From positions 1 to 50,279 of the IMG/VR virus record IMGVR_UViG_3300027533_000005: 50,279 nucleotides of DNA, one strand, 5' to 3'. The notes under the pieces were generated by a model. That model did not search any database, was not told the origin of the DNA, and worked only from the letters and a program-made list of their open reading frames with translations. Below are positions 3,719 to 50,279 of this stretch, piece by piece (position 1 is the first letter of the stretch; each line of letters begins with the position of its first letter). This DNA comes from a virus. Both the position numbers and the translations under genes were made by a program.

Positions 3719-4504
3719 CTATTTCGCTGGAAGCTGAGTTGCCTTCGGAACCTTGGACGCGTACTGTCCGCCACTGCTGAGTCCTGCTGCTCCTGGGGCA
3801 GAGCCAACGAGCCAAGTCGTTCCATCCCAGTATGCCTGTGACGCATCGCCCAGAACTACGTGCTCACCTACGAGCCATGCAGTCGTCGGACTAGCGGTAC
3901 AACCGCTGAGAGCGGCGAGGTCTGCCGGAGGTGCTGCGCCGCTCGGAGTGAAAGCGCCAGGCGCGCCCGAGGTCGCTCCCGTCGCAGTCACCACCTCTGG
4001 GGGAGGGGGTTCTGTGTCAAGAACCTCGATAGGAATCTCATTGGGAATCAAGGTAGCTGTGACAGAAGGATTCGCGGTGGGAGGACCCTCATCTGAGGTT
4101 ACTGCCATCCACGCCTGTGGATTCTCTGGATCGATTGCAAAGGCATCGATCATCTTCTGCTTGCGCGCGGCTTCAGCTTCTGACGCAAGGCGGCGATCTG
4201 TGATCTCTGCCTCGACACCTTCGTTCAGCGTGGTCTCTTCCTCTGGAGCGAGGACGCTGGATCTTCCATCGTCGCGTCGTCGCGCAAGCGCGCGCTCCTT
4301 CAGAGAAGCTCGAAGGGCGTCTTCGTACTGACCAAGCGAGTTCGATTCGACGTACAGTTCCTTCGTCGCTACGCCCTTGGCAACTCCTTTGACCATAAGG
4401 AGTACGTCGCCTGGGCCTGCTGTGAGTTCACCGTGCTTCGTCTTGACTAGCAGCGGCGTCGACAGGTTCACTCTGTCCTGGGTCGATGGTGTCGGATCGG
4501 GCAT
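3719..4504 (-). CDS. Hypothetical protein (261 aa)
   Basis: ORF track; co-directional in the tightly packed operon. Confidence 0.55.
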   Translation of the reverse strand: MPDPTPSTQDRVNLSTPLLVKTKHGELTAGPGDVLLMVKGVAKGVATKELYVESNSLGQYEDALRASLKERALARRRDDGRSSVLAPEEETTLNEGVEAEITDRRLASEAEAARKQKMIDAFAIDPENPQAWMAVTSDEGPPTANPSVTATLIPNEIPIEVLDTEPPPPEVVTATGATSGAPGAFTPSGAAPPADLAALSGCTASPTTAWLVGEHVVLGDASQAYWDGTTWLVGSAPGAAGLSSGGQYASKVPKATQLPAK

Positions 4505-4718
4505 CTGGTTTCTCCCTGATAACTAGCACGTTAAAAGCTTTGGGACCATTTGTGCCCTCCTCATAATCAAAGGTTACTTTGTCGTTCTCTTTAATGTTTC
4601 TAAAGGGAACTGAGTTACGTGAAACCTTTGACCAGTGCAGGAAGTAATCGCGTTCATCTTCACCCTCTACGAACGCGAAACCTTTTTCAAGAAATATCTT
4701 GCGAACATAACCATTCAT
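4428..4718 (-). CDS. Cold-shock-domain (CspA-like OB fold) protein
   Basis: MNGYVRKIFLEKGFAFVEGEDERDYFLHWSKV...: KGFAFV resembles RNP1 (KGFGFI) and YFLHW resembles RNP2. Start taken at the Met at 4718, directly after the upstream stop. Confidence 0.6.
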   Translation of the reverse strand: MNGYVRKIFLEKGFAFVEGEDERDYFLHWSKVSRNSVPFRNIKENDKVTFDYEEGTNGPKAFNVLVIREKPDARSDTIDPGQSEPVDAAASQDEAR

Positions 4719-4719
4719 T

Positions 4720-5412
4720 TTACCCCACCTCAATAGTCTCGTAAGTAGTCTCTTCCTTTGACTCTGGAGAAAACACAATAACCTGTGCGGCGTTGGTCTG
4801 CTCAGTGACGATAGTAGGCTTCGTAGCCGCCATGATGGACGCCAGGTTGCGCGCTATCAGTGATAGGTCCTTGGCGTCCTTGTTATCCAACTTGTCTGGG
4901 GTTATACCTGCCACGGCTGTGGAGAGTACACCAAGAACCTGGTCACGCACAACCAGGATGTTGTGGTCGATAGCCGCTGCTAATCCTGGGGATTCTGTCT
5001 CTGGACCGGTGCGCCCGTGGCTGTAGTGATGGGCCATCGTCGCATTAACGCCCCAGGACTTTGCTGCGTTGGCAGCAGTACCGAGGGCCGCGGCTGTACC
5101 GATGAGCTGCCTGAAGATCGGTGGGACGTTACCTTGTTGGGGGTAGCGACCACCACGTTCGTCGCTTGTCTTAAGGTGGCGTCTACCAGCGAGAATGGCG
5201 AGGCGGACGGCGTCATCTTCACTTGCATCGGTTGGGTTTTGCTGAACTGTTTCAAGAGCGACATCAACTGGCTTGATCTCTTCGATGATGACTGGGTTCT
5301 TGGTTGGCTCTGGCTTTATCAGCTCGGGCTTGGTCAATGGAATCTTCAGGCGACGAAGCAGATTGCTGTCCGAATTTACCCTTCGGTCTGCTTCTTCCTC
5401 ACTGATAAACAT
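4720..5412 (-). CDS. Hypothetical protein (230 aa), first gene of the leftward operon
   Basis: ORF track. AGGAG SD upstream of the ATG at 5412, about 30 nt downstream of a consensus promoter. Confidence 0.6.
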   Translation of the reverse strand: MFISEEEADRRVNSDSNLLRRLKIPLTKPELIKPEPTKNPVIIEEIKPVDVALETVQQNPTDASEDDAVRLAILAGRRHLKTSDERGGRYPQQGNVPPIFRQLIGTAAALGTAANAAKSWGVNATMAHHYSHGRTGPETESPGLAAAIDHNILVVRDQVLGVLSTAVAGITPDKLDNKDAKDLSLIARNLASIMAATKPTIVTEQTNAAQVIVFSPESKEETTYETIEVG

Positions 5413-17771: not shown

Positions 17772-17974
17772 TAAGGTCTCCGGGCTGACTATTAGAGCGT
17801 GTTCACCCACGCAAGCGTCGATCTAGTACAAAGCCTTTCAGCCGTGTGGTCCCGAGCGGTTGGAGATTCGGGACAACTTTTGAGCCGGGGGCCAAGTGGA
17901 TGGTATGTGGGCAGTGGCACAGCAGTAACCATCTCGTAACGAGGAAGCCATACCCCGGTATTTTTGGAGGCCTC

Positions 17975-19243
17975 ATGAAGCTAGCGATTGAGACAATACA
18001 AGTCAAGGAAGAACCTATTGACGAGGCCGAGGTTCAGAACCTAGCTGAGTCTTTCAAGGAACGCGGTCAGATACACCCCATAGCTGTTCACCAAATGAAC
18101 AGCAGCGTAGTCCTTATTACAGGACGCAAGCGTCTTGCAGCAGCCAAACTACTGGCATGGCAAGAGGTTGACTGTGCAATCTACGAGAACCTCACAGAAA
18201 ATCAGATAGAAGAGATTGCGCTGCACGAGAACCTGAAGAGGTACAACCTGCCTTGGACTGAGGAAGTCCTAATGGTCGAGAGGTTGCATCTGCTCAAGCA
18301 GCTCATCTATGGCAAGCCACCTGAACAGGGTGGCGGACATCAAAAGACAGGCTGGAGTGTCAGAGACACCGCAGCCGCGCTCCAGCAGGCACTCGGTAAA
18401 ACCTCCCAAGACCTACAACTAGCTAGGCATGTTAGGCTCGACCCTTCGCTGTCTAAGGTGAAGGACAAGCGCACTGCAATGCGTCTGGTCAAGATCGCAG
18501 TGAAGCGATTCGACGACGAAGAGCAGGCAGGTGCGGCCGATTTCGGGATGAAGATGAACCAACTGTTCTGTGGTGATTCGGCAGTCGCCATGAAACACTT
18601 CCCAGACAATACCTTCCATGCCTGTATCACTGATCCGCCTTGGCTCAGATTCTTTGATTCAACTTTGCGACTCGATGAACGAACAGTGCCCGTATTTCGG
18701 GAGCTGTATAGGGTCATGCGTTATGATAGTTTCGTCTACATCTTCTGTGGATTTGACGATTATCACTACTACGCTGGGCGCACAGAGCCAGACCCTATAC
18801 TACCGAGCGAGACCAGAAGAATACCTGGAGTCCTTGAAGACATCGGGTTCCGTGTGGCAAAAACTCCTCTCTTCTGGAGAAAGCTCAAGAGCTTGTCCCG
18901 TAGAGGCGTTACTCCATGGGAGCACGGACGGGATTTCGAACTCATTACGGTTGCTGTCAAAGGGAATCCAGTCCTGAAAGGCGGGACGCAGGATACCTCA
19001 TTCTTTGACGTGGACGCCGTCCCACCTGTGAAGCTCATTCATCCCAACGAGAAGCCTGTTGACTTGATGAAGAAGCTCCTCGATGAATGCACTCATGAGG
19101 GTAATGCAGTCATCGACCCCTTTGCAGGTTCCTTCTGCGTGCCAGACGCTTGCAAACAAATGAAGCGTTACTGGATCGGAATAGATAGGGATCAAGAATC
19201 GTATTCGAGAGGTTGCAAGCGTCTAGGAATTGAGGAGCAGTGA
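17975..19243 (+). CDS. ParB-N (ParB/Srx) domain fused to a beta-class N6A/N4C DNA methyltransferase
   Basis: GRKRLAAAKLL (ParB box II-like). Motif IV ITDPPW precedes motif I VIDPFAGSF (beta-class order). Start taken at the ATG at 17975 with a GGAGG SD. Confidence 0.8.
   Translation: MKLAIETIQVKEEPIDEAEVQNLAESFKERGQIHPIAVHQMNSSVVLITGRKRLAAAKLLAWQEVDCAIYENLTENQIEEIALHENLKRYNLPWTEEVLMVERLHLLKQLIYGKPPEQGGGHQKTGWSVRDTAAALQQALGKTSQDLQLARHVRLDPSLSKVKDKRTAMRLVKIAVKRFDDEEQAGAADFGMKMNQLFCGDSAVAMKHFPDNTFHACITDPPWLRFFDSTLRLDERTVPVFRELYRVMRYDSFVYIFCGFDDYHYYAGRTEPDPILPSETRRIPGVLEDIGFRVAKTPLFWRKLKSLSRRGVTPWEHGRDFELITVAVKGNPVLKGGTQDTSFFDVDAVPPVKLIHPNEKPVDLMKKLLDECTHEGNAVIDPFAGSFCVPDACKQMKRYWIGIDRDQESYSRGCKRLGIEEQ
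18081..18105. repeat. 25-bp palindrome family member 5 (TAGCTGTTCA-ccaaa-TGAACAGCag), inside the ParB-N coding region
   Basis: Perfect 8-bp arms; encodes IAVHQMNS. Confidence 0.85.
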
Positions 19244-20274: not shown

Positions 20275-20458
20275 CGATTATGAATGGGCTTTGGAACGTG
20301 TGACGAAAATGTGCGCTTCCGCGCTCGTCGATGCTCAAATCTATCGTCAGAAACTCCTAAAAGGTTTTGGGTATCCTGACGAGACATTCCGTTCAGCGCA
20401 GGATTACCGAGCCTTAAGTATCATCCTCCAACGGCTAGCTGATTTGGAGGAGAAATGA
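20255..20458 (+). CDS. Hypothetical small protein (TTG start)
   Basis: ORF track. Confidence 0.35.
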   Translation: MEVNKPNDYEWALERVTKMCASALVDAQIYRQKLLKGFGYPDETFRSAQDYRALSIILQRLADLEEK

Positions 20459-22917
20459 TTAAGCCACGTTACGTACCAGGCATTGGACCAATAGGTGCGC
20501 GGCTTGCCATCGTCGGTGAGGCGCCGGGCGCGCAAGAGGACCAAGAGGGTAAGCCCTTTGTTGGTGCGGCTGGAGAATTGCTCAACGGATTTCTACGTGA
20601 AGCAGGTATCAACAGGAACGATTGTTACGTCACCAACGTGGTGAAGTTTCGTCCACCTGAGAACGACCTGAAGCGGTTGAATGAGATAGGCGTGTCGCTG
20701 GCAGACTCCACGGTAGAGCTGTTCGACGAGCTACATGCACTCAAGCCCAACTGCGTCCTTGCCCTGGGGAATACAGCACTTCATGCACTGACGAACAAGA
20801 CAGGTATCAAGGTATATCGTGGCTCAGTTCTGAGGAGTTCGGACTTCAAACTGAAGGTTGTCGCGACCTACCATCCCGCGCACCTGCTTCGTCAAGCTGG
20901 CTCTGAGGTCATGGACTACGCGGCGCGGGCTTACGTGAGTCTAGACTACGCGAAGGCCGCACGGGAGAGCTTGACTCCCGAGTACCACGTCCCAGATCGC
21001 CTGTTGAATGTGTGTCGTAACAGCCTGGAACTGTATAGGTTCAAGCGACAATACGCAGACAAGACCAAGGTAGCGGTCGACATCGAGACATACAAGACGA
21101 TCCCTACCTGCATTTCGTTTGCCTTTACTCGCTACCATGCTATGTCAGTTCCGCTCATTAACATGGTGAGCGAGAACAAACCAGAGTGGGTGCCTCGACA
21201 TGAACTGGAACAGATGTGGGAATTCGTGGCGAGTATCCTTAATGACCCTAAATACGAACTCATCGGCCAGAACTTTAAGTTCGATGACGCCAAACTACGA
21301 TCGCCTTGCTGTTTCAGACCAGCGAATATATACGCTGATACGATGCTCATGGCGCACACGCTCTACCCGGAGTTTCCTCTTGGTCTTGCTTTTCTCGCGA
21401 GCATTCATACGGATGAACCGTATTACAAAACAGAGGGTAAGGAGTTCGATCCTCGAAAGGACACATACGACAGGCTCTACCTCTACAACGCTAAGGACGC
21501 GGCGATTACTTTTGAAGTATTCGAGGAGCAAGATAAAGAACTCGACGAAGTTGGACTCAGATCTTTTTACTACGACTTCGTAAACAAGTTTCATTGTGCC
21601 TATCGAGACATGGAACAGGTGGGCCTGTTGCTGGATGTCGATAGGAATAAAGAGCTAAAGAAAAAGTATAGAGCTGAATTGAAGGAAGCTCAATCACGGC
21701 TGGATACAGCCGTGGGAAGGCATATCAATGTCGCTTCTCCGAAACAAATCAACGACTTACTATATCGTGATATGGGTCTCCCCCTCCGCAAGGATACGAG
21801 CGAAGATACAATCGTTGCTCTCCAGAACAATGTTTGTAAGGTCGAATCTGACAAGCAAACGCTCGGAGACATTCTCCTCGTACGTCGCATTCGAAAAACC
21901 TTGGGAACTTATCTCGAAGCAAGACCTGACGTTGATGGACGATTTAGAACTAGCTATCGAATCGTTGGTGCGGAAACTGGACGAACTTCAACAACAATCC
22001 TCAGAGCGCCCGTAAGGTTCTTCAAGAGTGGCCTTGCTTTCCAAACGATGACGAAGCACGGCGATACAGGTTCCGATCTACGTAGCCAGTTCGTCGCTGA
22101 CCCTGGCTACGTGTTCGTTGAGATTGACAGTAGCCAAGCAGAAGCGCGCGTCGTTGCTCTGCTCGCCAACGATTTAGAATTGCTCAACCTGTTTGATACT
22201 ACTGATGTGCATCGGATGACAGCAGGTTGGATCTTTAATTGCAGACCTGAGAAGGTAACGTATGAGCTTCGGTTCGTTGGAAAGACAACAAGACACGCAG
22301 GGAACTACGGCATGCGTAAGGGACGACTCATGCAAATCATCAACACGGATGCTAAGAAGTTCCACATCGATATACAAGTTAGCGAATGGAAAGCAGGACA
22401 GATACTCGACGCTTTCCATAACTTTTCACCGAAGATCCGTGACGTTTTCCATGCTGAGGTTATACAAGCCCTGCACAACAGTGACAGGATTCTCATTAAC
22501 CCTTTTGGCAGACGACGTCAGTTCTTCGGTCGCTTCGATCACGAGTTGGAGAGAGAGTCGTTTGCTCAGATTCCTCAGTCGACGATTACTGATAACACGA
22601 AGCGCGCGCTCCTCGCCATTAGGGACAGAACTGCTGGTGATGTTCGAATTTGGGGAGAGTTCGCTAGCACTACAGGAATATGTGTTGAGGCACACGATGC
22701 CCTTGTCGGACTCGTTAAAGAAACAGAGATCGATCTCTATTTGAGCTACGCAGTACCGGCTTTCGAGATGCCGATTGATTTCTCACAGTGTACTCTGCCA
22801 CGGGGAACTATAAGTATCCCATGTGAGGTGAAGGTTGGACGGAACTATAAGGACTTGAAAGACTATGTCGTGGCTCGACGAAGTGATGCAGTCGTCAGCG
22901 GAAGTCGAGAGCCCTAA
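20455..22917 (+). CDS. Family A DNA polymerase with 3'-5' exonuclease domain and an N-terminal family-4 uracil-DNA-glycosylase-like domain
   Basis: UDG4 motifs GEAPGAQEDQEGKPFVGAAGELL and YHPAHLL. Exo motifs VDIET, NFKFD, YNAKD. Pol motifs A (EIDSSQAEARV), B (RFVGKTTRHAGNYG) and C (EAHDA). Confidence 0.9.
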   Translation: MIKPRYVPGIGPIGARLAIVGEAPGAQEDQEGKPFVGAAGELLNGFLREAGINRNDCYVTNVVKFRPPENDLKRLNEIGVSLADSTVELFDELHALKPNCVLALGNTALHALTNKTGIKVYRGSVLRSSDFKLKVVATYHPAHLLRQAGSEVMDYAARAYVSLDYAKAARESLTPEYHVPDRLLNVCRNSLELYRFKRQYADKTKVAVDIETYKTIPTCISFAFTRYHAMSVPLINMVSENKPEWVPRHELEQMWEFVASILNDPKYELIGQNFKFDDAKLRSPCCFRPANIYADTMLMAHTLYPEFPLGLAFLASIHTDEPYYKTEGKEFDPRKDTYDRLYLYNAKDAAITFEVFEEQDKELDEVGLRSFYYDFVNKFHCAYRDMEQVGLLLDVDRNKELKKKYRAELKEAQSRLDTAVGRHINVASPKQINDLLYRDMGLPLRKDTSEDTIVALQNNVCKVESDKQTLGDILLVRRIRKTLGTYLEARPDVDGRFRTSYRIVGAETGRTSTTILRAPVRFFKSGLAFQTMTKHGDTGSDLRSQFVADPGYVFVEIDSSQAEARVVALLANDLELLNLFDTTDVHRMTAGWIFNCRPEKVTYELRFVGKTTRHAGNYGMRKGRLMQIINTDAKKFHIDIQVSEWKAGQILDAFHNFSPKIRDVFHAEVIQALHNSDRILINPFGRRRQFFGRFDHELERESFAQIPQSTITDNTKRALLAIRDRTAGDVRIWGEFASTTGICVEAHDALVGLVKETEIDLYLSYAVPAFEMPIDFSQCTLPRGTISIPCEVKVGRNYKDLKDYVVARRSDAVVSGSREP

Positions 22918-29864: not shown

Positions 29865-30247
29865 AACTCCTTTACCAAAAGCTCACCCGGCTTATATGCC
29901 TGAAAGAAATGATAATGCTTCTGCATTAGAAGTGCGAAGTTTGGATCAGTAATAAAGACATACATCTCTTGCAAACCTGCCTGCTCCGTCCCACGAAAGG
30001 CCTCACGCATCAAGAGCTTGAGCGCGCCGATCCTGGTACGAAGCGAGGCAGATTTGTCGAGAAACATCATGCCTTCCGCAAAGAGCTTGACTTGTCCGTA
30101 GCCTACGATCTTGCTGTTGTGTTCCACAACAGCGTCAACTATCGACGTTCTTCTGTTCGGAAGGCCGTACAAGTCTGCATGGTAATCATCCCAGATTTTA
30201 CTGATTTCTGGAACGTCCTCCCAGCGGAAAGACCGAAGCTCCATCAC
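29861..30247 (-). CDS. GNAT-like acetyltransferase candidate (128 aa)
   Basis: Size and pattern (IVGYGQV...LRTRIGALKLLMREAF...); motif A is imperfect. Confidence 0.4.
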   Translation of the reverse strand: MMELRSFRWEDVPEISKIWDDYHADLYGLPNRRTSIVDAVVEHNSKIVGYGQVKLFAEGMMFLDKSASLRTRIGALKLLMREAFRGTEQAGLQEMYVFITDPNFALLMQKHYHFFQAYKPGELLVKEL

Positions 30248-30900
30248 TCACCTTTTTCGATGGTCAAGGATTCCCAGGCATGAGGATCGCCTGTCTTACC
30301 AATCCAGTTGATTGGTGCATCTGGCGACGTTGGTCCTCCACCCTTGATACCTGCGAGCAAACCTGAATTGGTCCGGAGCGCGATCTTGTCGCCCAGCTTG
30401 ACACCAGTGAACTGCGCAAGCGAAGCGTCAATCATGGCCTGAACCTGAGCCTCTGTCAGTCCACCAGTTGCTGGAGGTTGAGTTCCTCCTTGAGCACCCT
30501 GTACAGGAGCATACTCATTGCCAGCAACCCAATAGAAAGCCCACACCAAACCACCGCTTTTCGCATTGAAGTTCTCTTTCGCGTTCCTTGTCTTGCTGTA
30601 GGTCTGAGCTGCGTCGTCGAGGTACTGCATACAACGAGTGTAGTAACCCAGCTCGTCGGGGATGGCGGTCGGGAGGAACATACGACCCTTCGGCCCACCC
30701 GAGTACTGCTGAGTGAAAGCGAAGTAGGGCATCGAGGCGTCAGGCCTGACGTTGGGACCATAGCCGGGAGGAAGTCCGCAGCTATTCATGACAGTTTCCC
30801 AATCATTGGCAGGCTGACCAATGACCTTACCAATACCCTGAAAGAACCACTGCTTGGCTTCTTCCTCTGTCTGAGGACAACGACTCATGTCAAATGGCAT
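30244..30900 (-). CDS. Hypothetical protein (218 aa) in the rSAM cassette
   Basis: ORF track; ATGA overlaps. Confidence 0.5.
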   Translation of the reverse strand: MPFDMSRCPQTEEEAKQWFFQGIGKVIGQPANDWETVMNSCGLPPGYGPNVRPDASMPYFAFTQQYSGGPKGRMFLPTAIPDELGYYTRCMQYLDDAAQTYSKTRNAKENFNAKSGGLVWAFYWVAGNEYAPVQGAQGGTQPPATGGLTEAQVQAMIDASLAQFTGVKLGDKIALRTNSGLLAGIKGGGPTSPDAPINWIGKTGDPHAWESLTIEKGE

Positions 30901-32227
30901 GTTTGCTCTCCAATAGTAACGCTCTGTAATTGTCGTTCTTGACTGCTGTCACTACAGTGAAATATGGATCTGTGTAGTACTCTAGACCCTCACGCCATTC
31001 ACCATAGTTGTAGAGAAGTAGTCGTTTTGAGTACTGTGAAATCACCTCCATAAGGGCTGTACCCTTGTAAGGATCAACCTCGAATAGGCGTTGGGACGAG
31101 AGCAGAACTAGATCTACTTTCTCCCACTCGCGGAAGCTAAAGATGTCAGAACAGTAGGGAATGACACCCGGAACTATGTCCTCGATGACTGCCGTATTTG
31201 AATCGACACCAAGCAATTTCGTATTTGGATGCGCGGCCTGAATCCTCTTGAGGAGTATGCCATTACCACAACCTAGGTCTAGAACCTTGCCATGAACCTT
31301 AGCATCTGATAGGACCGAGACGATGAACGAGTGCGCCGCGCTCATATCCGATTTGGATTTGAAGCCGTTGAAAAACAATCGAGATGTCACGACGTTCTGG
31401 AATGGAAACTTATTCCCGCTCGCACCATGTGCAGGGTATAGCTCACTGTCCAGTCGTAACGTAGCCTTGGTAGGCAAGGGATCAGATGCGTAGATGGTCT
31501 TGAGGATAGGAGTAGTTACCATCGCTACACCATGGAGAGAAGTCCACTCCATAGGCATAACGAGTAGCTGCTGCAACCAATCCGCAGGCATCATCAGACC
31601 CTCTGTATGCATCATGACGCCAATGATCTTCGCACCTATCTTCACGCTCTCCTGACAGTTTACACTACAAGGAAGATGAAAGACTCCACGTATACCAATG
31701 TGCCGTAGTAGAACATTGTTATACATCAAGTTTCTCTGAAGAGGCTGACCATACGAATGGATCGTTAGGTCTCGCCATCCTTCTTTCTTCCAATGCGTAA
31801 CAAAGGATGCAGTACAACAATCTGGAAAACCAAGCATATGACCAATAGCAAGGTCAGCCTGAGCTTTCCAAGCATCTATAAACTTCTCAGGTTCTAGACC
31901 AAAATACACTCTGTAGGTAAATCTCTCTCCTGCTACGTAGGGTATCGACGCATTACCGTAGCTTTCTGTCGCGCCGTCCAACCCAACGATCGCCATCGGA
32001 ATGTTTTTGGCGAGCGCCCAGTTCTGTACATCTGGTAGCTCTTCAGGTGTGACGCTCTGCAACACACCGGGACGCATACCCTGCAATAGCGTGAGGCGCT
32101 CGATAGCATGCCAACTTGCAGAGATACTTCTAATCTTAGGCTCCCAGTATTCCCTTGCATGCTCCGACACCCACACAGTCCGAAGGAAATCTGGAATTGT
32201 AAAGTCTAATCTTTCTAGTTTGCCCAC
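30890..32227 (-). CDS. Cys-rich N-terminal domain fused to a class I SAM-dependent methyltransferase
   Basis: GFPDCCTASF...HLPCSVNC in the N-terminal ~290 aa; motif I KVLDLGCGNGILL in the C-terminal domain. Confidence 0.7.
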   Translation of the reverse strand: MGKLERLDFTIPDFLRTVWVSEHAREYWEPKIRSISASWHAIERLTLLQGMRPGVLQSVTPEELPDVQNWALAKNIPMAIVGLDGATESYGNASIPYVAGERFTYRVYFGLEPEKFIDAWKAQADLAIGHMLGFPDCCTASFVTHWKKEGWRDLTIHSYGQPLQRNLMYNNVLLRHIGIRGVFHLPCSVNCQESVKIGAKIIGVMMHTEGLMMPADWLQQLLVMPMEWTSLHGVAMVTTPILKTIYASDPLPTKATLRLDSELYPAHGASGNKFPFQNVVTSRLFFNGFKSKSDMSAAHSFIVSVLSDAKVHGKVLDLGCGNGILLKRIQAAHPNTKLLGVDSNTAVIEDIVPGVIPYCSDIFSFREWEKVDLVLLSSQRLFEVDPYKGTALMEVISQYSKRLLLYNYGEWREGLEYYTDPYFTVVTAVKNDNYRALLLESKHAI

Positions 32228-33390
32228 TCTGGTTTCTCCGTTAGAATTGTAGCTCTAATACCATCTGTATGATCCCCATGAGAATCCCCGTGAGGAGTAT
32301 CACCGTGGCTGTTCACCGGATGAACACCTGCTAGTATCCTATCGACAATCTTCTGCTTCTTATCACAACAGAGGATTCTTACACTTTTATCACTACGTAG
32401 ATCTAATTCAATCTTCTCAAAGAGAGAGTACCAGAGTCTGCAATTAACTGTGCGGTTTCTCCAGTCGCCGTCAATTGATGTGCCTGGACAGTGACCCTTG
32501 CAGAAAGCGAAGTATTTACAATCTCTACAACCACCATGCTCTTGAGGCGTGTAATAAAGTCCAATATATCTCTCATTTCCTGGTCGGTCGGCTTTGACCC
32601 AGTTGACTCCGTCCTTGTTAGTTCTACCACAATTTGACATAACACCATTTGGAGAAACTCCTTGAACCGCAGCGGTTGTAATTGGGTCGCAACTATTCCA
32701 CACGCACGATACCTGAGGCTGTTCTTCAGTTAGAAGTCTCTTGATGTCAATGAAGGGCGCAACTTGTATCTTTGCTGTCTTCGACCACTCATAGAGTTCT
32801 AGGAAGGTTTCGATTTGTCTTTCTTCGGAGAGGGCGAGATCACGTCTTCCACAATCGATTTCCATCTCGTGTAGATTAAGATACCTGATACCACCCCTAC
32901 TAAGATGATCGAACCAGTTACACAAAGCAGGAATATCATTGTTCCCCCTATGTATGGTGCAAATGATAGAGGTATTGATACCTTGCTTGAATAGCTTGTA
33001 AATGGCCTCTTCAGTTTTCTCTGTCAGTTCATCAGTGCAGCGAACTCGATTCATCTTGCCAGGACCATCGATCGAGATACCTACTTGCACTGCGTATCGA
33101 GAGAATAGTTCTATGTGCTTATCGGTAATCAACGACCCGTTTGTTTGAATCCCATTACGACCAAACTTCTCAAATCCATAAGCCCAGACCTCTTCGAGGT
33201 GTTCGACGGGCGCGAGCAAAGGCTCACCGCCGAAGACCGAGAAGTCAGAACCTAGTCTTTCAAGTTGTGCCTTGACCTTAGACCAGTCCCTTGGAACATT
33301 GATGTTCCCTGCCTCACGCATAGGGTCTTGATAGCAATAGCCACAGGAGATATTGCAGGCAATCCCGACAGGTAGATACTCTATACTCAT
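32215..33390 (-). CDS. Radical SAM enzyme with C-terminal SPASM domain (peptide/protein-modifying maturase type)
   Basis: CX3CX2C (ACNISCGYCY, nt 33334-33357), FGGEPLL, IQTNGS, ISIDG. SPASM CX2CX5CX3C (CRDCKYFAFCKGHC) plus upstream Cys residues. Confidence 0.85.
   Translation of the reverse strand: MSIEYLPVGIACNISCGYCYQDPMREAGNINVPRDWSKVKAQLERLGSDFSVFGGEPLLAPVEHLEEVWAYGFEKFGRNGIQTNGSLITDKHIELFSRYAVQVGISIDGPGKMNRVRCTDELTEKTEEAIYKLFKQGINTSIICTIHRGNNDIPALCNWFDHLSRGGIRYLNLHEMEIDCGRRDLALSEERQIETFLELYEWSKTAKIQVAPFIDIKRLLTEEQPQVSCVWNSCDPITTAAVQGVSPNGVMSNCGRTNKDGVNWVKADRPGNERYIGLYYTPQEHGGCRDCKYFAFCKGHCPGTSIDGDWRNRTVNCRLWYSLFEKIELDLRSDKSVRILCCDKKQKIVDRILAGVHPVNSHGDTPHGDSHGDHTDGIRATILTEKPEWAN
32306..32330. 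repeat. 25-bp palindrome family member 6 (tGGCTGTTCA-ccgga-TGAACAcctg), inside the rSAM gene tail
   Basis: 6-bp perfect arms TGTTCA/TGAACA; encodes GVHPVNS on the minus strand. Confidence 0.75.
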
Positions 33391-34220
33391 GGACCTAGAT
33401 TGATTGGGTTATCGACATGTGGTGCATCGTTATGAACTGCGTCTGAATGATCTCCATGTGGAGTATCAGAGTGCGGCACATCGCTATGAGTACCAGATGG
33501 AACATCCGAATGTGGAACATCCTGATGATCGTTAGCTCCTGGGTCGTCATGATGTGGCACGTCTGCATGTGAATCGTTATGAGCTACATCTTGATGTGGT
33601 GAATCGTCGTGCCATATACAGTTATAAGGACCAACGCTGACGTTGTCGTAGAAGTCGCCATGTGCGTAGAACTCACCGTTTTGGTAAATGGTGCAGTCAC
33701 TATGGTTCAGAGTACCAGGGTTATCCCCGTGCATATCGTTATGTGCATCGGTATGAGGAGTATCACTATGTTGATCTGTATGAGAGTCACCATGACCCCA
33801 GTCCTGATGCCAATCGTTATGTGGCACATCTGAGTGTCCTCCAGGAGGGACATCTGTATGAGCCACTTGATCCGTATGATCTACATGCGCGGCTGCACCA
33901 CCACCGTCAATGTGTGCTACATCTTGATGCGCGTGCATTTCCGCAGCTTCAGCACCACCTATCCACCGAAGGAAAGAACCCTCTACCCAGATAGACCCCG
34001 GCACACCATGATACTCACCATTCCAAACTGCTTCAGTCCTGTAAATTTGATTTCCAGCTTGATTGACATAGTAAACGTAGTAACTCTCTATCCACAGAGA
34101 TCCAGGATAGGCTGTTTGATTCTTGACAAAGATTCCCTGCCAAGCCCACTCTACACCAGCCTCATCAACCCAATGTAGATTGTTCCCTTCTATCCACAAG
34201 GAACCTTGATACTTAGCCAT
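33387..34220 (-). CDS. His-Xaa-Asp repeat protein (277 aa): N-terminal triple beta-rich repeat plus ~183-aa H-x-D-rich region; candidate substrate of the adjacent rSAM enzyme
   Basis: About 30 H-x-D tripeptides counted by hand (HQD, HID, HVD, HTD, HSD, HND, HGD...). The stop overlaps the rSAM start (ATGA at 33387-33390). Confidence 0.7.
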   Translation of the reverse strand: MAKYQGSLWIEGNNLHWVDEAGVEWAWQGIFVKNQTAYPGSLWIESYYVYYVNQAGNQIYRTEAVWNGEYHGVPGSIWVEGSFLRWIGGAEAAEMHAHQDVAHIDGGGAAAHVDHTDQVAHTDVPPGGHSDVPHNDWHQDWGHGDSHTDQHSDTPHTDAHNDMHGDNPGTLNHSDCTIYQNGEFYAHGDFYDNVSVGPYNCIWHDDSPHQDVAHNDSHADVPHHDDPGANDHQDVPHSDVPSGTHSDVPHSDTPHGDHSDAVHNDAPHVDNPINLGP

Positions 34221-34853
34221 TTACGTGGCTGCCCACTTATCCGCGCCAAACGGAATGACTAGCCGACTAGGGGCATTGCACACCATAGGACCATTGTTTG
34301 GTGGAACAGAAACTACAAGACCAAGATCAGCGAAGTCTGCTCTGTGAACTGTAAGAGCATACCCTCCTGCCCAACCAGCTGTAATGAGTAGGCCAGACGA
34401 TCCATTTGTTGCACCCTCACCAGCCACATGCTCTGCATATTGACCTGGGCGACCGTGGACTATAAGAGTAGTCCCACTCGTCCCATACATATGGAAGTCA
34501 TTACCATTATAAGAGCAATTTCCAGACAGTCCTATATTCGCAGCAGTTCCACCTGTGATAGCAACCGCATTTGAATTCTGGAGTGCCATCGAACCTAGAC
34601 CAAGATTGGAACGTGCTGTACCTGCTGAAGCTGCACCAGTTCCTCCACCCTCGACAGAAAGTGTAAGATCACTAAATCTGTCACCAACCCACTCTTGAAA
34701 CTTAACAGGGGCGCGAATAAGTTTAACAGCTTGATAAGGAAGTCCCAGGGTGGCAGTTGTATTCAGAGCTATAGCATCAGCGTCACGAGATTTTAGCTCA
34801 TCGACGAAAGCAACGTAATTACTCGTTATTGTCGGCTTGTTCCAGTCGGCCAT
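34221..34853 (-). CDS. Tail fibre protein
   Basis: LSVEGGGTGAASAGTARSNLGLGSMALQNSNAVAITGG is the common phage tail-fibre N-terminal motif. Confidence 0.6.
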   Translation of the reverse strand: MADWNKPTITSNYVAFVDELKSRDADAIALNTTATLGLPYQAVKLIRAPVKFQEWVGDRFSDLTLSVEGGGTGAASAGTARSNLGLGSMALQNSNAVAITGGTAANIGLSGNCSYNGNDFHMYGTSGTTLIVHGRPGQYAEHVAGEGATNGSSGLLITAGWAGGYALTVHRADFADLGLVVSVPPNNGPMVCNAPSRLVIPFGADKWAAT

Positions 34854-34966
34854 TTTCTTCTCTCAGTCGAGTTATCTCAGCAGCCATCTCACTGATTTGA
34901 AGCAGTTGTTTTCTCCTAACGACTTCTAGCTCACCCACGATCTGGTAAAGTTCTTCAAGCGTAATC

Positions 34967-35284
34967 TCAAATTGTCCCATCTGGCTCCCCTACCACCGTT
35001 CCAGGCAATATGCCATCGGTTGAGAGTTTGTTAAGAACTCTCTTAGTTAGACTATGAGTTGAAAAGTCCGCTGTGTTAATGAATTGAATAAACTCTTTAG
35101 CCTCTGCCCCAACATACGTGTGGTTGAATAGACCCCCGTGTTCATCTTCTAACTGAATCATGACAGCTCCCTGCTTCCCAGGAACTAGCTCTATCTTTGT
35201 ATTCATGGTAAGCGCAAGCATCTTGTATTTCGCCGTAACCTTTTCAGGTACGACAACCGGGTCTGTAAGAACTAATTCTTCCAT
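34967..35284 (-). CDS. Hypothetical structural protein (105 aa)
   Basis: ORF track; TAATG coupling. Confidence 0.5.
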   Translation of the reverse strand: MEELVLTDPVVVPEKVTAKYKMLALTMNTKIELVPGKQGAVMIQLEDEHGGLFNHTYVGAEAKEFIQFINTADFSTHSLTKRVLNKLSTDGILPGTVVGEPDGTI

Positions 35285-36075
35285 TAGATTGTCTCGTAAA
35301 AACCACTGATTGAAATAGAGACTCCAGAGCCCATAGTAAAAGGACTCGTACCAGTCAATAAAAATCCAGTGTTTGCCTCATACATACCTAAGACTATGTC
35401 TGATGATATCGTGCAAAAAATGGACAAACTCTGTCCAGTTCCAGGATTATAAACACGTCCGTGCCAAGCCTCAACCCCAGTGCCAATGTAAGCTGCCATG
35501 ACACCCTTCGGCAAACTAAAATGTAAAGTTCCAGTTCCAAAATTGGTCGTTGATCCAGCATTGAAATTGATCGTAAAAAATATCGTTTTGTCGATCTGAG
35601 TATACTTTCCATTTATAGTACCATTTCCAAGGGACGAAGCAACGCCATCCGCTGTAAACGTCGGAGTATATGTAGTAGTCCTTCCAATAGGAGTAGCGGA
35701 GTTAGGTAGAGTTAATCCACCACTAAGCTGTACATTGCCAGAGCGATCTATTCGAACAGATCCAGTCGCGGTATTCTCTGCATCATTTATAGCTTGTAAG
35801 TATAAAAACTGGGTCGCTTGGATAATCTCAAATTTCTTTTGGTTCGCGGGTTGACTAGTGTCATTCCAGACGAGAGATGGCACACCAAATGAAAGTTCTT
35901 GTCTCTGAGTAAAAGCATTTCGGACATCTGTATAAGCGGTAGTAATCCAATCCCGATCGGCGCTTAGATTCCCATGAGTAATAATAGATGCATTCAACTC
36001 AAGCTGAGTCCAGGTCGCTCCATTATCAACCGACTTCTCAAAGATCCTACCTGCTACGTTGTATCTTTGCCACAT
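35284..36075 (-). CDS. Tail fibre/receptor-binding-like protein (263 aa)
   Basis: Ser/Thr/Gly/Asn-rich beta-type composition; position. Confidence 0.5.
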   Translation of the reverse strand: MWQRYNVAGRIFEKSVDNGATWTQLELNASIITHGNLSADRDWITTAYTDVRNAFTQRQELSFGVPSLVWNDTSQPANQKKFEIIQATQFLYLQAINDAENTATGSVRIDRSGNVQLSGGLTLPNSATPIGRTTTYTPTFTADGVASSLGNGTINGKYTQIDKTIFFTINFNAGSTTNFGTGTLHFSLPKGVMAAYIGTGVEAWHGRVYNPGTGQSLSIFCTISSDIVLGMYEANTGFLLTGTSPFTMGSGVSISISGFYETI

Positions 36076-37505
36076 TATACAATACCCCGTGCTTTCCAGG
36101 ACACAAGGTATGTCACTCGATTGCCAGTAGAATCTAGTGCGAAAACCTTAAAGAACTCTGGATTTGGAATATCCACAAAGTCGTAAATGATAATGATTGG
36201 TTCGACTGAGTCTGCTGTACAAGTAATCGAGTTGACGTCCTTGAATACCTTATTGAATAGCACCTGAGTGCCAAGAGTATCACCGGCGAGTGCTACGATC
36301 TCACCACCATCTACCTCTCGCTTGACGTCGATGGTAGTTTCCATCAGCGTCAGCTCGGCTAACGCCTTATCACTTGAGCCTGTAAACTCTAGCCTTATCT
36401 TGAGGTATCGGAATAATGGAACGAACTGAGAGTATCCTGCCACGAGTGGCGTATAGACAATACCATCAGTTGAGCTGGCTAGGTAAACTACTACCGTAAC
36501 CTCAGGCACTATCTGTGCCATCTGAAAGACAACTGTTACAATAACATTCTGAATCTCAAGCTCGTAATCGATAATTTCCTCATACCACCCAGTTGTTACT
36601 GTAGGCTGTATGTAGATTGGATAACCAGCATCTATCTGGTCCTGTGGTTGATCCCAGGACTTTGTTGTATAATGCAATTCCCACGTGGGCGCAGTATCTA
36701 CGCAAGCTATCAAGGTCGGCACGCTAGTTCGCACAACATTGTGCATCGTGCCATCTAGATCGCTAACAGCACGATCTAACAACTGGTAGTCTGGAGGTGT
36801 ATTGACTACTGCTGTAACGTAGCCTCTAGGACCAGTATTGCCTGCGATATCTACTGCTTCAATACTGTATGTGTAGGTTCCTGCCACGGTCTCGAATGTC
36901 GAGACAAACGTAGCACGAAGCACCCCATACAGGTTGTTATCCCGATATATACGAAATCGTTCAATCGAGAAGCTCGTTGTAGGGGTAGTCCAATTCAGTA
37001 GGACATTGTTGTCGACTACCGCTGCTGTAATGAATGGAGCATAGGGTGAAAGAATCGTAATGACTGTACTTGCAAAGTTTGGTGAGTAGTTACCAAGAAA
37101 ATCAATAGTCTTAATCAAAAAGTAATATGCTCCCGAAGGGAGCGGGTCGAGAAGGATATTCAGAGAGGGGGTGCGCGTTACAAAGAACGCAGTATCCCAG
37201 TTCAATTCATCCGAACGACGAATTTCGTAGGTGCGCGCCGCAGTGCTAGGTGACGCATCCCACGAAAGGAAGATACCATTCAGACGAACCACACCCGTGA
37301 AGTTGGGAGGCTCTGGAGATGTTCCTGTCCCGCCACCCGTAACAGGCTTCAGTGCCTCTGTGATTGGTGAGATCGTTTCATAGACGACCTGCATGTCCCT
37401 GTTGAAGTCCCTGAGAATATCCTTCAGGATCAGGACAGACCTGTCGTCATTTCCCAGAGCATCAATCCGGGCGTCGCGCTGCGGCTTTACGGGATGGCTA
37501 GGCAT
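36075..37505 (-). CDS. Tail protein with two FN3-like repeats
   Basis: Repeated pattern (LSWDASP...YEIRR... and LNWTTP...FRIYRD...YTYSIEAVDIAGN). Start set to the ATG at 37505 (TAATG coupling). Confidence 0.55.
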   Translation of the reverse strand: MPSHPVKPQRDARIDALGNDDRSVLILKDILRDFNRDMQVVYETISPITEALKPVTGGGTGTSPEPPNFTGVVRLNGIFLSWDASPSTAARTYEIRRSDELNWDTAFFVTRTPSLNILLDPLPSGAYYFLIKTIDFLGNYSPNFASTVITILSPYAPFITAAVVDNNVLLNWTTPTTSFSIERFRIYRDNNLYGVLRATFVSTFETVAGTYTYSIEAVDIAGNTGPRGYVTAVVNTPPDYQLLDRAVSDLDGTMHNVVRTSVPTLIACVDTAPTWELHYTTKSWDQPQDQIDAGYPIYIQPTVTTGWYEEIIDYELEIQNVIVTVVFQMAQIVPEVTVVVYLASSTDGIVYTPLVAGYSQFVPLFRYLKIRLEFTGSSDKALAELTLMETTIDVKREVDGGEIVALAGDTLGTQVLFNKVFKDVNSITCTADSVEPIIIIYDFVDIPNPEFFKVFALDSTGNRVTYLVSWKARGIV

Positions 37506-49600: not shown

Positions 49601-50279
49601 GCGCGGCTGAGCCATATCGCTTCTCGCCTGTACTACTCAGTGCTTGACCACGAGAACCCTTGACCTTGACATGAGGACCGAAGTCCTGAGGATAACTCAG
49701 TAGTCCATTCAAGCGATCGATGGCGTCTGTTGCTACAGGGTCCATCTTGAGCTTTTGGTAGTATGCCCCAAGTTGTTCCGGTGTAGCCTGACCAGACCTG
49801 ACGGCCGCATGTGTTACCGCACTAGGACCCTCGGCGTAGTGTCGTTGGTCGTTGAATGCTTTCGTAAGAGTCTTGATGTAATCCTTATCCTCAACAGGAT
49901 CTAGCGATTTGATAATTACATCGAAATCTTCCTTCGGAACGGGCGCGCCTCGAACATCCAGAATCTTTGTAGTTTCTGGGAAATCAACTGGTATATGAGT
50001 ACCACCAAGATAACTCTTATTCGATTGTCCTGTTGGTGGCTTACCTGCCTGACGAGCCTGTTTGGCTTCCTTTGGAGTGTAGTATCCTGCATGACCAAAT
50101 CGGCCTAGCACATCTCCAGAGGACGTAGTACCAAATCCTTTATTGAGGACTAGATCTTCATGGTGGGGGTAATTCAGACTGTGCGAGAAACCTTCGACCC
50201 CTCGTGCGCGCTTCCAGAGGTTCGGAGGAAGCCAAGCAGTCTGCGCCATCTCAGGAGTCGCACCAATGAGTGCGCCTGC
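46659..50279 (-). CDS. 3' 1206 codons of the junction-spanning ~1397-aa ORF: HD-type phosphohydrolase motif plus C-terminal PI3/4-kinase-like/atypical kinase-like motifs
   Basis: The ORF is open to the window end. HD motif ...SHTKDV...LALPLHDIGKP...NHD (His codon at 47805-47807). Kinase-like YLFKE, HPVDWLTGNMDAHGAQFL and GIVGIDRGRAF. Confidence 0.7.
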   Translation of the reverse strand, partial: AGALIGATPEMAQTAWLPPNLWKRARGVEGFSHSLNYPHHEDLVLNKGFGTTSSGDVLGRFGHAGYYTPKEAKQARQAGKPPTGQSNKSYLGGTHIPVDFPETTKILDVRGAPVPKEDFDVIIKSLDPVEDKDYIKTLTKAFNDQRHYAEGPSAVTHAAVRSGQATPEQLGAYYQKLKMDPVATDAIDRLNGLLSYPQDFGPHVKVKGSRGQALSSTGEKRYGSAALNQPSVTGEFGGIHYTDYVVGTPQDTKSGSMAFDPRQTLFAPVGSQKNRLTTPWKQGKIAPAGMPKEGGGTFKGVFPSDAPGGVSAPTPGNVAGPAVVQPPPVPPPSQVSAAESWAAANMNEVPTAKKPPKSWEGAPTYKGKVISITEQGTLKELAAAGRDLTKTEQAKLAAVKQWESGRPADVPVPTSQAPAGPASQTWADMSDAEKLQLSQTDPQKYLQMSEAAIAEQPHVYQGVTTSATDVNRPATMQQHIADLDNIFEEAGVKLPYELKEVTPGTTPEELHLAAIEYLGSASHYEAAEEVQKLWDMKLKGDTVDSPPTPTGAAFGDVEAPDIGKIDVFNATTGKTVGTFNSQAEVDEFLSVHPRASELDWAPHDPSFEAHAAIAEPTVEAPVDYDAQYKGFVDLFHDTNADPEDVMMAWKDLHPALKSKLAYEDADLFQTISKMEEAGTPEDIDLGTIDFDTFVGGATRQAPVAKPKLVKAPGPVAAPAELPSALPKGFEGFENVPLPKALDPLGKESIKSLDTHGSLDYLKNTYPEIAENFAKHSGTEMGSIESHTKDVLKQWKTQLTSEEFADISNRSGMDVEAIMNLALPLHDIGKPQAIASGDKTLQHSFTTPIIEDILQKEGFDQRDIDLATELFNHDMIGSLLQGSSKLTPQQVADELVKKADKVGMDPSDFAKLQLAFFQADASSYPFVTQYMKQQPNGGWISGSPKVKPIEDLIQGPTGIKSAAPTGADTGYQIKVKDAEDILGGTKNKDIYTKNGQDYLFKEANPAYFADQEVAANKVANLAGLHPIKIEVTQMGGKTGTMQAAVGNNMNWPTLKEVDPKTLTAEELRDVIRNHPVDWLTGNMDAHGAQFLRTPNGIVGIDRGRAFKNYASNKLHPDYNPTGGVGYYDQIYNDIVKLYKKGELPQLSEADINAAIKQTTFKMYQNTNAISAEIADGLERSGQGHLKGLAKQRFLDLEKDLLKFWTGK
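50153..50279. repeat. Terminal direct repeat copy 2 (identical to 1..127)
   Basis: Exact match read by eye. Confidence 0.9.

Follow-up and report, generated by a model that had tools for sequence, protein, structure and literature searches.

The window analysed here, the whole 50,279-nucleotide stretch of the IMG/VR virus record IMGVR_UViG_3300027533_000005, encodes a protein with two arrays of His-Xaa-Asp (H-x-D) tripeptides and, directly downstream, a radical S-adenosylmethionine (SAM) enzyme with a SPASM region (hereafter rSAM), which is followed by a DUF483 protein. From the selection acting on the motif and the linkage of the arrays to the enzyme pair, we infer with high confidence that the H-x-D arrays are a substrate of the rSAM at all. 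At a distinctly lower level of certainty, and by analogy with the triceptide systems, it is probable that the rSAM installs three-residue cross-links between an aromatic ring and a Cβ along the fibre protein.

Selection on the H-x-D motif

The original prediction had counted by hand about 30 H-x-D tripeptides in the last ~183 residues of the protein, at 33390-33938, which corresponds to residues 95-277 on the minus strand. A regular-expression count returned the identical list of 30 overlapping tripeptides between residues 98 and 270, or 29 if the overlapping HHD/HDD pair is taken as one. The 183-residue region holds 33 Asp and 31 His (35% together), and its composition does not account for the motif: 100,000 composition-preserving shuffles of the region gave a mean of 5.57 (standard deviation 1.96, maximum 16), which places the observed number at z = 12.5. 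In the same control the reversed motif D-x-H matched expectation (6 vs 5.6), and HD, H-xx-D and H-xxx-D were rarer than expected. The spacing had been described as irregular at 4-8 residues; it is irregular, but the actual gaps run from 1 to 17 with a mode of 4-5. The pair PH occurs eight times, as does H-x-D-(V/T)-P, and the whole protein contains only one HxH (residues 96-98) against its 30 HxD. The other segments of the window that resemble open reading frames (ORFs) have at most four H-x-D each, and the four belong to the adjoining rSAM gene.

At the DNA level the arrays are not a simple tandem repeat, as had been noted from the varying codons: Tandem Repeats Finder returned nothing across 33300-34300 with scores down to 30. 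The motif codons are CAT (25) and CAC (5) for His and GAT (21) and GAC (9) for Asp. A recent slippage repeat was dropped as an explanation, as a tandem repeat was not found and silent changes are plentiful. The closest relatives, L010 and L011, were found via their neighbouring genes and encode H-x-D proteins 77% and 63% identical to that of the window, with rSAMs 93% and 88% identical. In the comparison with L010, the 60 codons for motif His and Asp comprise 41 identical, 19 synonymous and no non-synonymous ones, whereas 11 of 28 middle-residue codons and 27 of 91 codons for other residues past position 95 are non-synonymous. Across three relatives, the motif His is conserved at 97% and the Asp at 86%, compared with 48% for the middle residue, 57% for the linkers and 52% for the N-terminal domain; of the 13 changes of Asp, 10 lead to Asn. 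Evidently, strong purifying selection acts on exactly two positions of each triplet, and the proposal of selection on the peptide motif is fully supported.

The motif is a property of a large family. A word-indexed search gave 48 relatives, and a profile search of 1.84 billion representatives gave 859 clusters at 50% identity with E ≤1e-3, or 434 with E ≤1e-10. Over 51 proteins, 1215 H-x-D were observed where 228 were expected, and H-x-S was strongly depleted (8 observed, 119 expected). Nearly all His lie in HxD among the members checked (53 of 53 in the protein of Thermus phage phiMa, 36 of 36 in P0003). Spacing over 1575 family motifs is mostly 4 or 5, and the middle residue is mostly Ser, Thr, Gly or Ala. 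The family includes very large tail proteins in which an HxD array makes up the C-terminal half: P0133, a 1188-residue tail protein with 87 HxD that lacks the N-terminal repeat domain of the window protein (the GS.W.EG domain, see below), P0245 with 85 HxD, and P0135 with 71 HxD and 17 FxN. One member of 331 residues, P0047, has a short HxD array followed by a segment which by eye resembles a Hint/intein-type domain (CVRIGTLVAV...). For the scan of genomes, the broader alignment of the protein (A1) was too diverse and a narrower one (A2) was used, which found a single locus among GTDB genomes; the host range is poorly sampled.

Linkage of the arrays to the rSAM and DUF483 genes

The gene order H-x-D protein, rSAM, DUF483 protein was found in the window, in the Thermus phages phiMa and Cumys and in L010 and L011. 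It recurs in five metagenomic phages of differing tail types (L003, L005, L006, L007 and L008), among them a siphovirus in which genes for a tape measure and an assembly chaperone lie upstream. In a Limnochordales prophage (L009) the cassette sits between a 550-residue fibre gene and lysis genes, and in the Cumys record the genes upstream of it are annotated as baseplate and tail-collar-fibre proteins. The contexts among the relatives are myo-, sipho- and podo-like. The H-x-D protein of the window is 35-37% identical to those of Cumys and phiMa, and its rSAM 45%. With phiLo, three cultured phages of Thermus thermophilus carry the cassette.

For a quantitative estimate, 46 IMG/VR loci were scored with local hidden Markov models, and 38 of these had at least 1.5 kb of downstream sequence. 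The rSAM and DUF483 genes were both present in 33 of the 38. The pair accompanied 33 of 34 array-bearing loci and none of the four loci which have the N-terminal domain only (0 HxD; Fisher p = 6.8e-5). The linkage of the arrays to an rSAM/SPASM enzyme is therefore near-obligate. The siphovirus that encodes P0133 (L012) also has the pair downstream; since P0133 has the pair without the GS.W.EG domain and the N-domain-only loci are without the pair, the enzymes track the arrays and not the N-terminal domain.

The lone array-bearing exception among the IMG/VR loci is L036, where an rSAM was not found within 3.3 kb downstream. Its 436-residue member (4001-5308) combines near-perfect AHTD(A/T)HTD tandem repeats with repeats of SFVNSH(N/S)D, and its middle domain is rich in Cys. 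In phiLo (L013) the pair is present and the HxD array lies at the C-terminus of the nearby phiLo_137, on the opposite strand at the right end of the locus, about 4 kb from the rSAM; the cassette has therefore been rearranged there. Two fragments of an IS605 OrfB transposase lie directly upstream of the phiLo rSAM (L013, 3815-4944).

The cassette has been noticed before. In Cumys and phiMa an "rSAM module" of a protein of unknown function, an rSAM and a DUF483 protein was proposed to carry out an unknown DNA modification (bioRxiv 10.1101/2024.08.14.607894). This is the same three-gene cassette as in the window, where the DUF483 protein differs by its fusion to a methyltransferase. By a term search the word "histidine" is absent from that paper, and the HxD repeats are not mentioned in it (bioRxiv 10.1101/2024.08.14.607894); in the literature searched it is the only mention of the cassette that was found. 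On that proposal the rSAM and DUF483 protein would form a DNA-modification module with the H-x-D protein as an unrelated neighbour, and homologues of the pair do occur beside deazapurine DNA-modification genes in cyanobacterial genomes (bioRxiv 10.1101/2024.08.14.607894). We consider it very improbable. The pair lies within the tail module, overlapping fibre genes, in all three kinds of phage context, and it accompanies the HxD arrays rather than their array-less relatives. Moreover, HxD units form the end of the rSAM itself, SPASM domains are usually met in enzymes that mature peptides and proteins, and a nucleic-acid-binding or nucleotide-metabolism domain was not found in NCBIfam and Pfam scans.

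Architecture and tail-fibre context of the H-x-D protein

The features of the H-x-D protein and of the genes around it are collected in Table 1.

Table 1. Four adjoining genes of the window and the features of their products
Feature	Position	Strand	Residues	Remarks
Gene 1, tail-fibre protein	34221-34853	(-)	210 aa	PHROG tail-fibre matches
Gene 2, H-x-D-repeat protein	33387-34220	(-)	277 aa	
N-terminal domain	33936..34220	(-)	1-95	three ~35-aa beta repeats
HxD array I	33723..33929	(-)	98-166	14 H-x-D
Central aromatic/Cys beta-hairpin	33609..33704	(-)	173-204	HSDC...YNCIWH; holds both Cys
HxD array II	33411..33611	(-)	204-270	14 H-x-D; at most 15 non-overlapping units (HHD and HDD overlap)
C-terminal tail	33390..33410	(-)		NPINLGP; family consensus P-x-x-(I/V/L)-G-P
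Gene 3, radical SAM/SPASM enzyme	32215-33390	(-)	391 aa	Pfam Radical_SAM 2e-15
CxxxCxxC motif	33334..33357	(-)	C12, C16, C19	very N-terminus of the rSAM
SPASM region	32440..32706	(-)	Cys 229, 234, 254, 288, 291, 297, 301, 317	includes Cx2Cx5Cx3C
C-terminal mini-array of the rSAM	32263..32307	(-)	362-376	HGDTPHGDSHGDHTD
Gene 4, DUF483 + class I methyltransferase fusion	30890-32227	(-)	445 aa	
DUF483 domain	31403..32227	(-)	1-275	Pfam DUF483 8.8e-6
Class I SAM-dependent methyltransferase domain	30893..31360	(-)	~290-445	Pfam MTS/Methyltransf_25

AlphaFold2 was run on the H-x-D protein as a monomer with a 36-sequence family alignment. A structure prediction had been suggested as a check, and it answered for one part of the protein and not for the other: residues 1-100 were modelled as all beta, three times four strands, with a predicted local distance difference test score (pLDDT) above 90, whereas both HxD arrays stayed below 50. 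The N-terminal repeats share the signature PGS(L/I)W(I/V)EG..LH(Y/W)(V/I)D..G.E, and W9, G40, W43 and W78 are invariant. Between the arrays, the central hairpin was predicted as strands 173-180 and 183-191 with pLDDT of about 72-80, and the segment aligns across the three closest relatives. The C-terminal tail was modelled as a strand (273-276, pLDDT 91); P272 is conserved at 90% or more in alignment A1, and G276 and P277 are invariant in A2.

Comparison of the H-x-D model with the PDB by Foldseek gave nothing with E below 0.2, only noise resembling propeller blades. Against BFVD there was one significant match, a 342-residue viral entry which is probably the phiMa homologue. Sequence searches of the protein gave nothing in NCBIfam, PHROGs, PADLOC or the PDB, and a single sub-threshold match in Pfam (Atu4866, E = 0.012).

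The window is a complete phage genome of ~50,152 bp, since bases 1-127 are identical to 50153-50279 and an exact 127-bp end overlap is what a circularly closed assembly usually shows. It codes for a large terminase, a major head protein, an SNF2 helicase and a host-specificity (J-like) tail protein. Four minus-strand genes lie tightly packed, the H-x-D gene second among them, with junctions of 0, -4 and -13 nt. At the first junction (34218-34223, minus strand) the TAA stop is followed directly by ATG in the same frame; at the second the sequence ATGA makes the ATG of the rSAM overlap the TGA of the H-x-D gene by 4 nt; at the third the overlap is 13 nt. Promoter-like and terminator-like sites along the four-gene stretch are no more frequent than chance, and the H-x-D, fibre, rSAM and DUF483 genes therefore look co-transcribed with the tail module.

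The PHROG tail-fibre and host-specificity matches lie upstream of the H-x-D gene. The 210-residue fibre protein encoded there has the C-terminus ...LVIPFGADKWAAT, and separate fibre proteins upstream of the H-x-D gene in L007, L008 and L009 share the same ending. In P0027, P0029, P0030, P0032, P0045 and P0155, the LV.PVG.DKW motif of this ending passes without a stop into GS.W.EG repeats and an HxD array. Because other phages encode the fibre end and the H-x-D part as one polypeptide, the H-x-D protein can be read as a distal part of the tail fibre, made as its own polypeptide in the lineage of the window. Its N-terminal domain probably docks it onto the fibre protein encoded just upstream.

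Two other readings of the region were dropped. The first is a read-through joining the fibre and H-x-D proteins, as the relatives overlap by 1 nt in another frame and the in-frame TAA-ATG is not conserved. The second concerns plus-strand ORFs at 33662-33994 and 33834-34178, where the conserved minus-strand ORF explains the region; homology or conservation evidence for them was not sought. At the DNA level, positions 30000-37000 matched none of 50,697 phage records.

The GS.W.EG beta domain is an independent phage module. The three-repeat domain without an HxD array is found in P0040, P0044, L054 and L058; alone or on other modules, without an array or the rSAM pair, it occurs in L054, L056-L058, P0040 and P0044, and in P0044 (419 residues) it stands at the C-terminus. 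Elsewhere in the window, an 820-residue ORF at 20455-22917 (+) combines a family-A DNA polymerase and its 3'-5' exonuclease with an N-terminal domain of the uracil-DNA-glycosylase (UDG-type) superfamily, and at 17846-19243 (+) an N6/N4 DNA methylase is joined to a ParB N-terminal domain.

The rSAM and its DUF483 partner

The cluster-binding motif of the rSAM begins at residue 12, which leaves no room for an N-terminal leader-binding domain such as the recognition element (RRE) of enzymes that act on peptides that are made by the ribosome and modified after translation (RiPPs). The eight Cys of the SPASM region are conserved in all 38 family members aligned (100%), with 11 invariant Cys overall, and they would be enough for two auxiliary [4Fe-4S] clusters. 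A search with the rSAM gave 1684 sequences at E ≤1e-20, a figure that may take in more distant rSAMs.

The best NCBIfam match of the enzyme is the cyclophane-forming AmcB with 83 bits against a cut-off of 425, followed by DynA with 76 bits, anSME (70.5, cut-off 349), YhhB (52, 445), GrrM/OscB (47, 310), XyeB (36.5, 450) and FxsB (32, 370). PapB scored lower than anSME, and QhpD-type enzymes were matched as well, all listed families being far below cut-off. The enzyme therefore falls outside the curated cyclophane-synthase families XyeB, GrrM/OscB, YhhB, AmcB and FxsB. Sequence matches in the PDB were the sulfatase-maturating anSME (4k36, 5e-13), the triceptide synthase ChlB (3e-5) and SkfB. 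Judged from these scores, the rSAM is a distinct family of peptide- or protein-modifying SPASM enzymes, related to the cyclophane synthases but separate from them.

anSME, the closest solved structure by sequence, likewise has its radical SAM motif at the N-terminus and acts on a full-length protein substrate without a leader. The match is limited to the radical SAM core (residues 5-148), however, and the C/S-x-P-x-R sulfatase motif was not seen by eye in the H-x-D protein.

The rSAM carries a mini-array of its own at the C-terminus (Table 1). Such HxD tails are present on 35 of the 38 family rSAMs, with 2-14 units that are mostly HGD, typically HGDxPHGDSHGDHTD, which points to co-evolution of the enzyme and the motif. 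The tail may serve for docking, stand in as a pseudo-substrate or provide a metal site. In L008 (1081-4248) two paralogous rSAM genes of 562 and 490 residues stand in tandem before the DUF483-methyltransferase gene, with tails of 14 and 10 HxD units within the last 110 residues; the tandem recalls the two-rSAM HxsB/HxsC arrangement.

The DUF483 partner is rich in conserved Cys and His: C137, C138, H184 and C191 are invariant and C187 and H232 nearly so (alignments A3 and A4). A profile of the DUF483 part found no relative among PDB sequences. The model of the whole fusion (AlphaFold2, pLDDT 91) matched NodS, TehB and the plantazolicin methyltransferase BpumL in Foldseek with E of about 1e-8 to 1e-9, the methyltransferase half swamping all matches. 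In most lineages the methyltransferase is fused to the partner. In phiMa and Cumys it is missing, DUF483 standing alone, and in L009 it has an ORF of its own; we therefore regard it as an accessory. A second DUF483-like ORF with a GYPRCC motif lies downstream of the cassette in L009 (9147-9830).

Proposed nature of the modification

The variants of the motif are informative for the chemistry. Relatives carry His, Phe, Tyr or Trp at position 1 and Asp or Asn at position 3. L017 has 22 HxN and 12 HxD, and L042 has 19 HxN, 13 FxN and 12 HxD; both keep the enzyme pair. In P0035, P0036 and the protein of L009, Y-x-D, F-x-D and Y-x-N dominate, and P0135 combines HSD with FSN. Over the whole family, enrichment is 2.3-2.5-fold for FxD and FxN and 2-fold for YxN. 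Since distant cassette-bearing members use HxN, FxN and YxD, the conserved unit is better described as aromatic-x-(Asp/Asn).

This unit resembles the substrates of known enzymes. Triceptides are defined by a motif Ω1-X2-X3 in which a carbon of the aromatic ring is bonded to the Cβ of residue i+2 by an rSAM/SPASM enzyme (PMC11499958). His is joined through C2 to the Cβ of Ala, Arg or Lys by HaaB, YhhB and HtkB; Tyr C3 is joined to Cβ of Asp by YxdB, Trp C7 to Cβ of Asn or Asp by OscB, and Phe C4 to Cβ of Asn by XncB and OscB (PMC11002830). In the case of HtkB, the His at position 1 can be replaced by Phe or Trp (PMC11499958). A His-to-Asp ring would thus be, by analogy, the union of two precedented halves.

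The enzymes that form cyclophanes of three residues (3-CyFEs XncB/XyeB, OscB/GrrM, MscB, YxdB, HaaB, YhhB, HtkB and ChlB) accordingly share with the present system an aromatic residue at position 1 and a free middle residue, several motifs in one substrate, and an adjoining rSAM with the full set of SPASM Cys; His serves as the aromatic residue in HaaB, YhhB and HtkB, and Asp or Asn supplies the Cβ in YxdB and OscB. There are also clear differences. The substrate here is a phage structural protein of 277-1188 residues with a folded domain and no leader-core logic, the rSAM of the window lacks an N-terminal RRE and has an HGD tail, the DUF483 partner is obligatory, and the system is encoded by a virus inside its tail module, with an enzyme below all family cut-offs. 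A described H-x-D cyclophane was not found in the literature searched, and searches on HxD with radical SAM, on phage triceptides and on rSAM with tail-fibre cross-links gave nothing on the H-x-D system.

Several points weigh against the cross-link. The rSAM scores far below all cyclophane-synthase cut-offs and appears about as near to anSME, an enzyme of different chemistry, and the bond type is drawn by pure analogy. Only some of the members show the aromatic substitution clearly, and YxD stands at expectation family-wide (65 vs 61 expected). Known triceptide substrates are short and leader-containing with 1-3 or few motifs, compared with the 30-90 motifs of these proteins. The placement of the H-x-D protein in the tail fibre comes from gene context and fusions, its presence in the virion being presumed, and AlphaFold2 models the arrays with low confidence. 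Finally, both His and Asp rank among the classic ligands of metals, and binding of iron by phage fibres via HxH motifs is known (PMC11705849).

The last points lead to a rival explanation, in which the protein would be a metal-binding trimeric fibre free of covalent modification. Axial His and Asp, at i and i+2 on the same face of a strand, would hold metal ions in a column, in the way that T4 gp37 holds iron with its HxH motifs, and the rSAM would be unrelated to the arrays or merely a chaperone or metal donor. By established coordination chemistry three chains can supply octahedral sites of 3His+3Asp, iron sites of the HxH kind have been documented for T4 gp37 and are predicted for further phage fibres (PMC11705849), the H-x-D protein sits in a tail-fibre module, and the low confidence of the monomer model in the arrays would fit a structure formed only as an oligomer with metal. 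Nevertheless, L017 and L042, with mostly HxN and FxN, and P0035 and P0036, with Y/F-x-D, keep the cassette. Phe is no ligand for metal and Asn a poor one, and the variants therefore argue against chelation as the conserved core function. The single HxH and the irregular spacing of 3-17 residues also speak against it, and the near-obligate linkage to the rSAM and DUF483 genes and the absence of the pair beside array-less relatives would be left unexplained. We consider this explanation unlikely.

A comparison with the HxH fibres and spikes themselves (the needle domain of T4 gp37, R-pyocin fibres and P2-type spike tips) is nonetheless apt, as in these too His motifs of i/i+2 spacing run along a receptor-binding fibre (PMC11705849), and by gene context and fusions the H-x-D protein belongs to such a fibre. 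It differs in having HxD instead of HxH, at least 30 motifs instead of 6-7, a dedicated rSAM, and His to Phe/Tyr and Asp to Asn exchanges in relatives.

Slightly less improbable, but still unlikely, is that the rSAM modifies the arrays by some other radical chemistry. Candidates are epimerisation, Cβ-hydroxylation or oxidation of Asp, a bond between His and Asp of the C-N or C-O type, or insertion of one carbon, comparable to the +8 Da change reported for HxsA. The methyltransferase may contribute part of the modification. SPASM enzymes are versatile, and the anSME oxidase is matched with 70 bits compared with 83 for the best cyclophane synthase; PapB and QhpD-type enzymes, which are also matched, attack the Cβ of Asp to form thioethers; an unexplained +8 Da is carried by the His-x-Ser effector HxsA (PMC13128918); and a SAM methyltransferase is fused to the partner in most lineages. 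Yet an aromatic residue at i, Asp or Asn at i+2 and a free middle residue is the signature of a ring from i to i+2 and not of a single-residue modification. For thioethers no Cys is available, for radical methylation there is no B12 domain, and the methyltransferase is dispensable, as phiMa and Cumys show. The original prediction had itself judged thioether chemistry unlikely from the presence of only two Cys, which is reasonable, as many family members have 0-2; thioether (sactipeptide) chemistry was dropped on this ground. By eye, the two are C176 and C201 in the translation.

The original prediction had offered the cross-link and chelation as equal alternatives. The comparative evidence, namely the rSAM linkage, the exchange of His for Phe, Tyr or Trp and that of Asp for Asn, favours the cross-link, and metal binding may occur beside it, the two not being mutually exclusive. 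It had also missed that the protein belongs to a tail-fibre module and is not a RiPP-type precursor, that the N-terminal domain is a confidently predicted beta domain, and that the rSAM carries an HGD tail.

The mechanism that we propose for the cross-link would start with abstraction of the Cβ hydrogen of the position-3 Asp or Asn by the 5'-deoxyadenosyl radical of the rSAM. The Cβ radical would add to the aromatic ring at position 1 (at C2 for His, as in the characterised His cyclophanes), and an auxiliary cluster would re-oxidise the adduct to give a three-residue cyclophane with a loss of 2 Da per motif. Ring formation would repeat along both arrays, up to ~30 times per chain in the window and ~90 times in the largest relatives. 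More speculatively, the Cys/His-rich DUF483 partner, which is always present, would probably help in handling the substrate, the optional methyltransferase might add further decoration, and the HGD tail of the rSAM might act as a docking element or pseudo-substrate. The product would be a rigid, heat- and protease-resistant, highly polar distal segment of the fibre exposed to the host surface, in which metal ions might still be bound by the imidazole nitrogens and the carboxylates. In its full form, that many environmental and thermophilic phages stitch dozens of His(Phe/Tyr)-to-Asp(Asn) cyclophanes into a tail-fibre protein by an rSAM of their own, with a new leader-independent recognition of a repetitive substrate through the HGD tail and DUF483, the proposal is a tentative one with slightly less than even odds.

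Relation to the HXS antiphage system

The nearest counterpart on the host side is the HXS antiphage system, in which the His-Xaa-Ser effector HxsA is matured by the rSAMs HxsB and HxsC with HxsD (PMC13128918). Common to both, on the proposed reading, are a protein-size substrate with repeats of His-x-(small polar), maturation by an rSAM, a small or accessory partner and a site of action at the interface of envelope and phage entry (PMC13128918). Unlike in HXS, HxS is depleted in the present family, and there are ~30 HxD compared with five HxS repeats; the window has one rSAM instead of two and no HxsD, and a signal peptide or peptidoglycan-binding domain was not noticed in the H-x-D protein sequence. 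The Hxs models are not among the top 25 NCBIfam matches of the rSAM. The locus also belongs to the tail module of a phage whose genome is complete, and not to a host defence locus. PADLOC gave no defence-system match, only generic viperin-core matches, and a known defence system was dropped as an explanation for this reason.

Implications

To our knowledge, ring-forming rSAM chemistry is known so far only from small bacterial peptides. If the cross-linking of the arrays is true, the H-x-D protein would be the first structural protein of a virus to be modified by an rSAM, and also the first triceptide on the scale of a protein, and rSAM cyclophane formation would extend beyond small secreted peptides to the large structural proteins of viruses. 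For the rSAM module, it would also offer a reading other than the DNA modification guessed at in the published work. As three cultured Thermus phages carry the cassette, the hypothesis is directly testable. For protein engineering, the enzyme would be a leader-independent and highly processive rSAM with a new partner domain, DUF483. The idea would surprise RiPP chemists and phage structural biologists alike, and the family is large.

For the phages themselves, side-chain cross-linking would be a new means to build or harden the host-recognition apparatus. The rings would make the segment rigid and proof against heat and proteases, and the imidazole/carboxylate pairs, pre-organised by the rings, might bind metal ions or the cations of the host surface during adsorption. 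The H-x-D system would then stand as the phage-side counterpart to the HXS defence of the host, which is built on His-x-Ser repeats.

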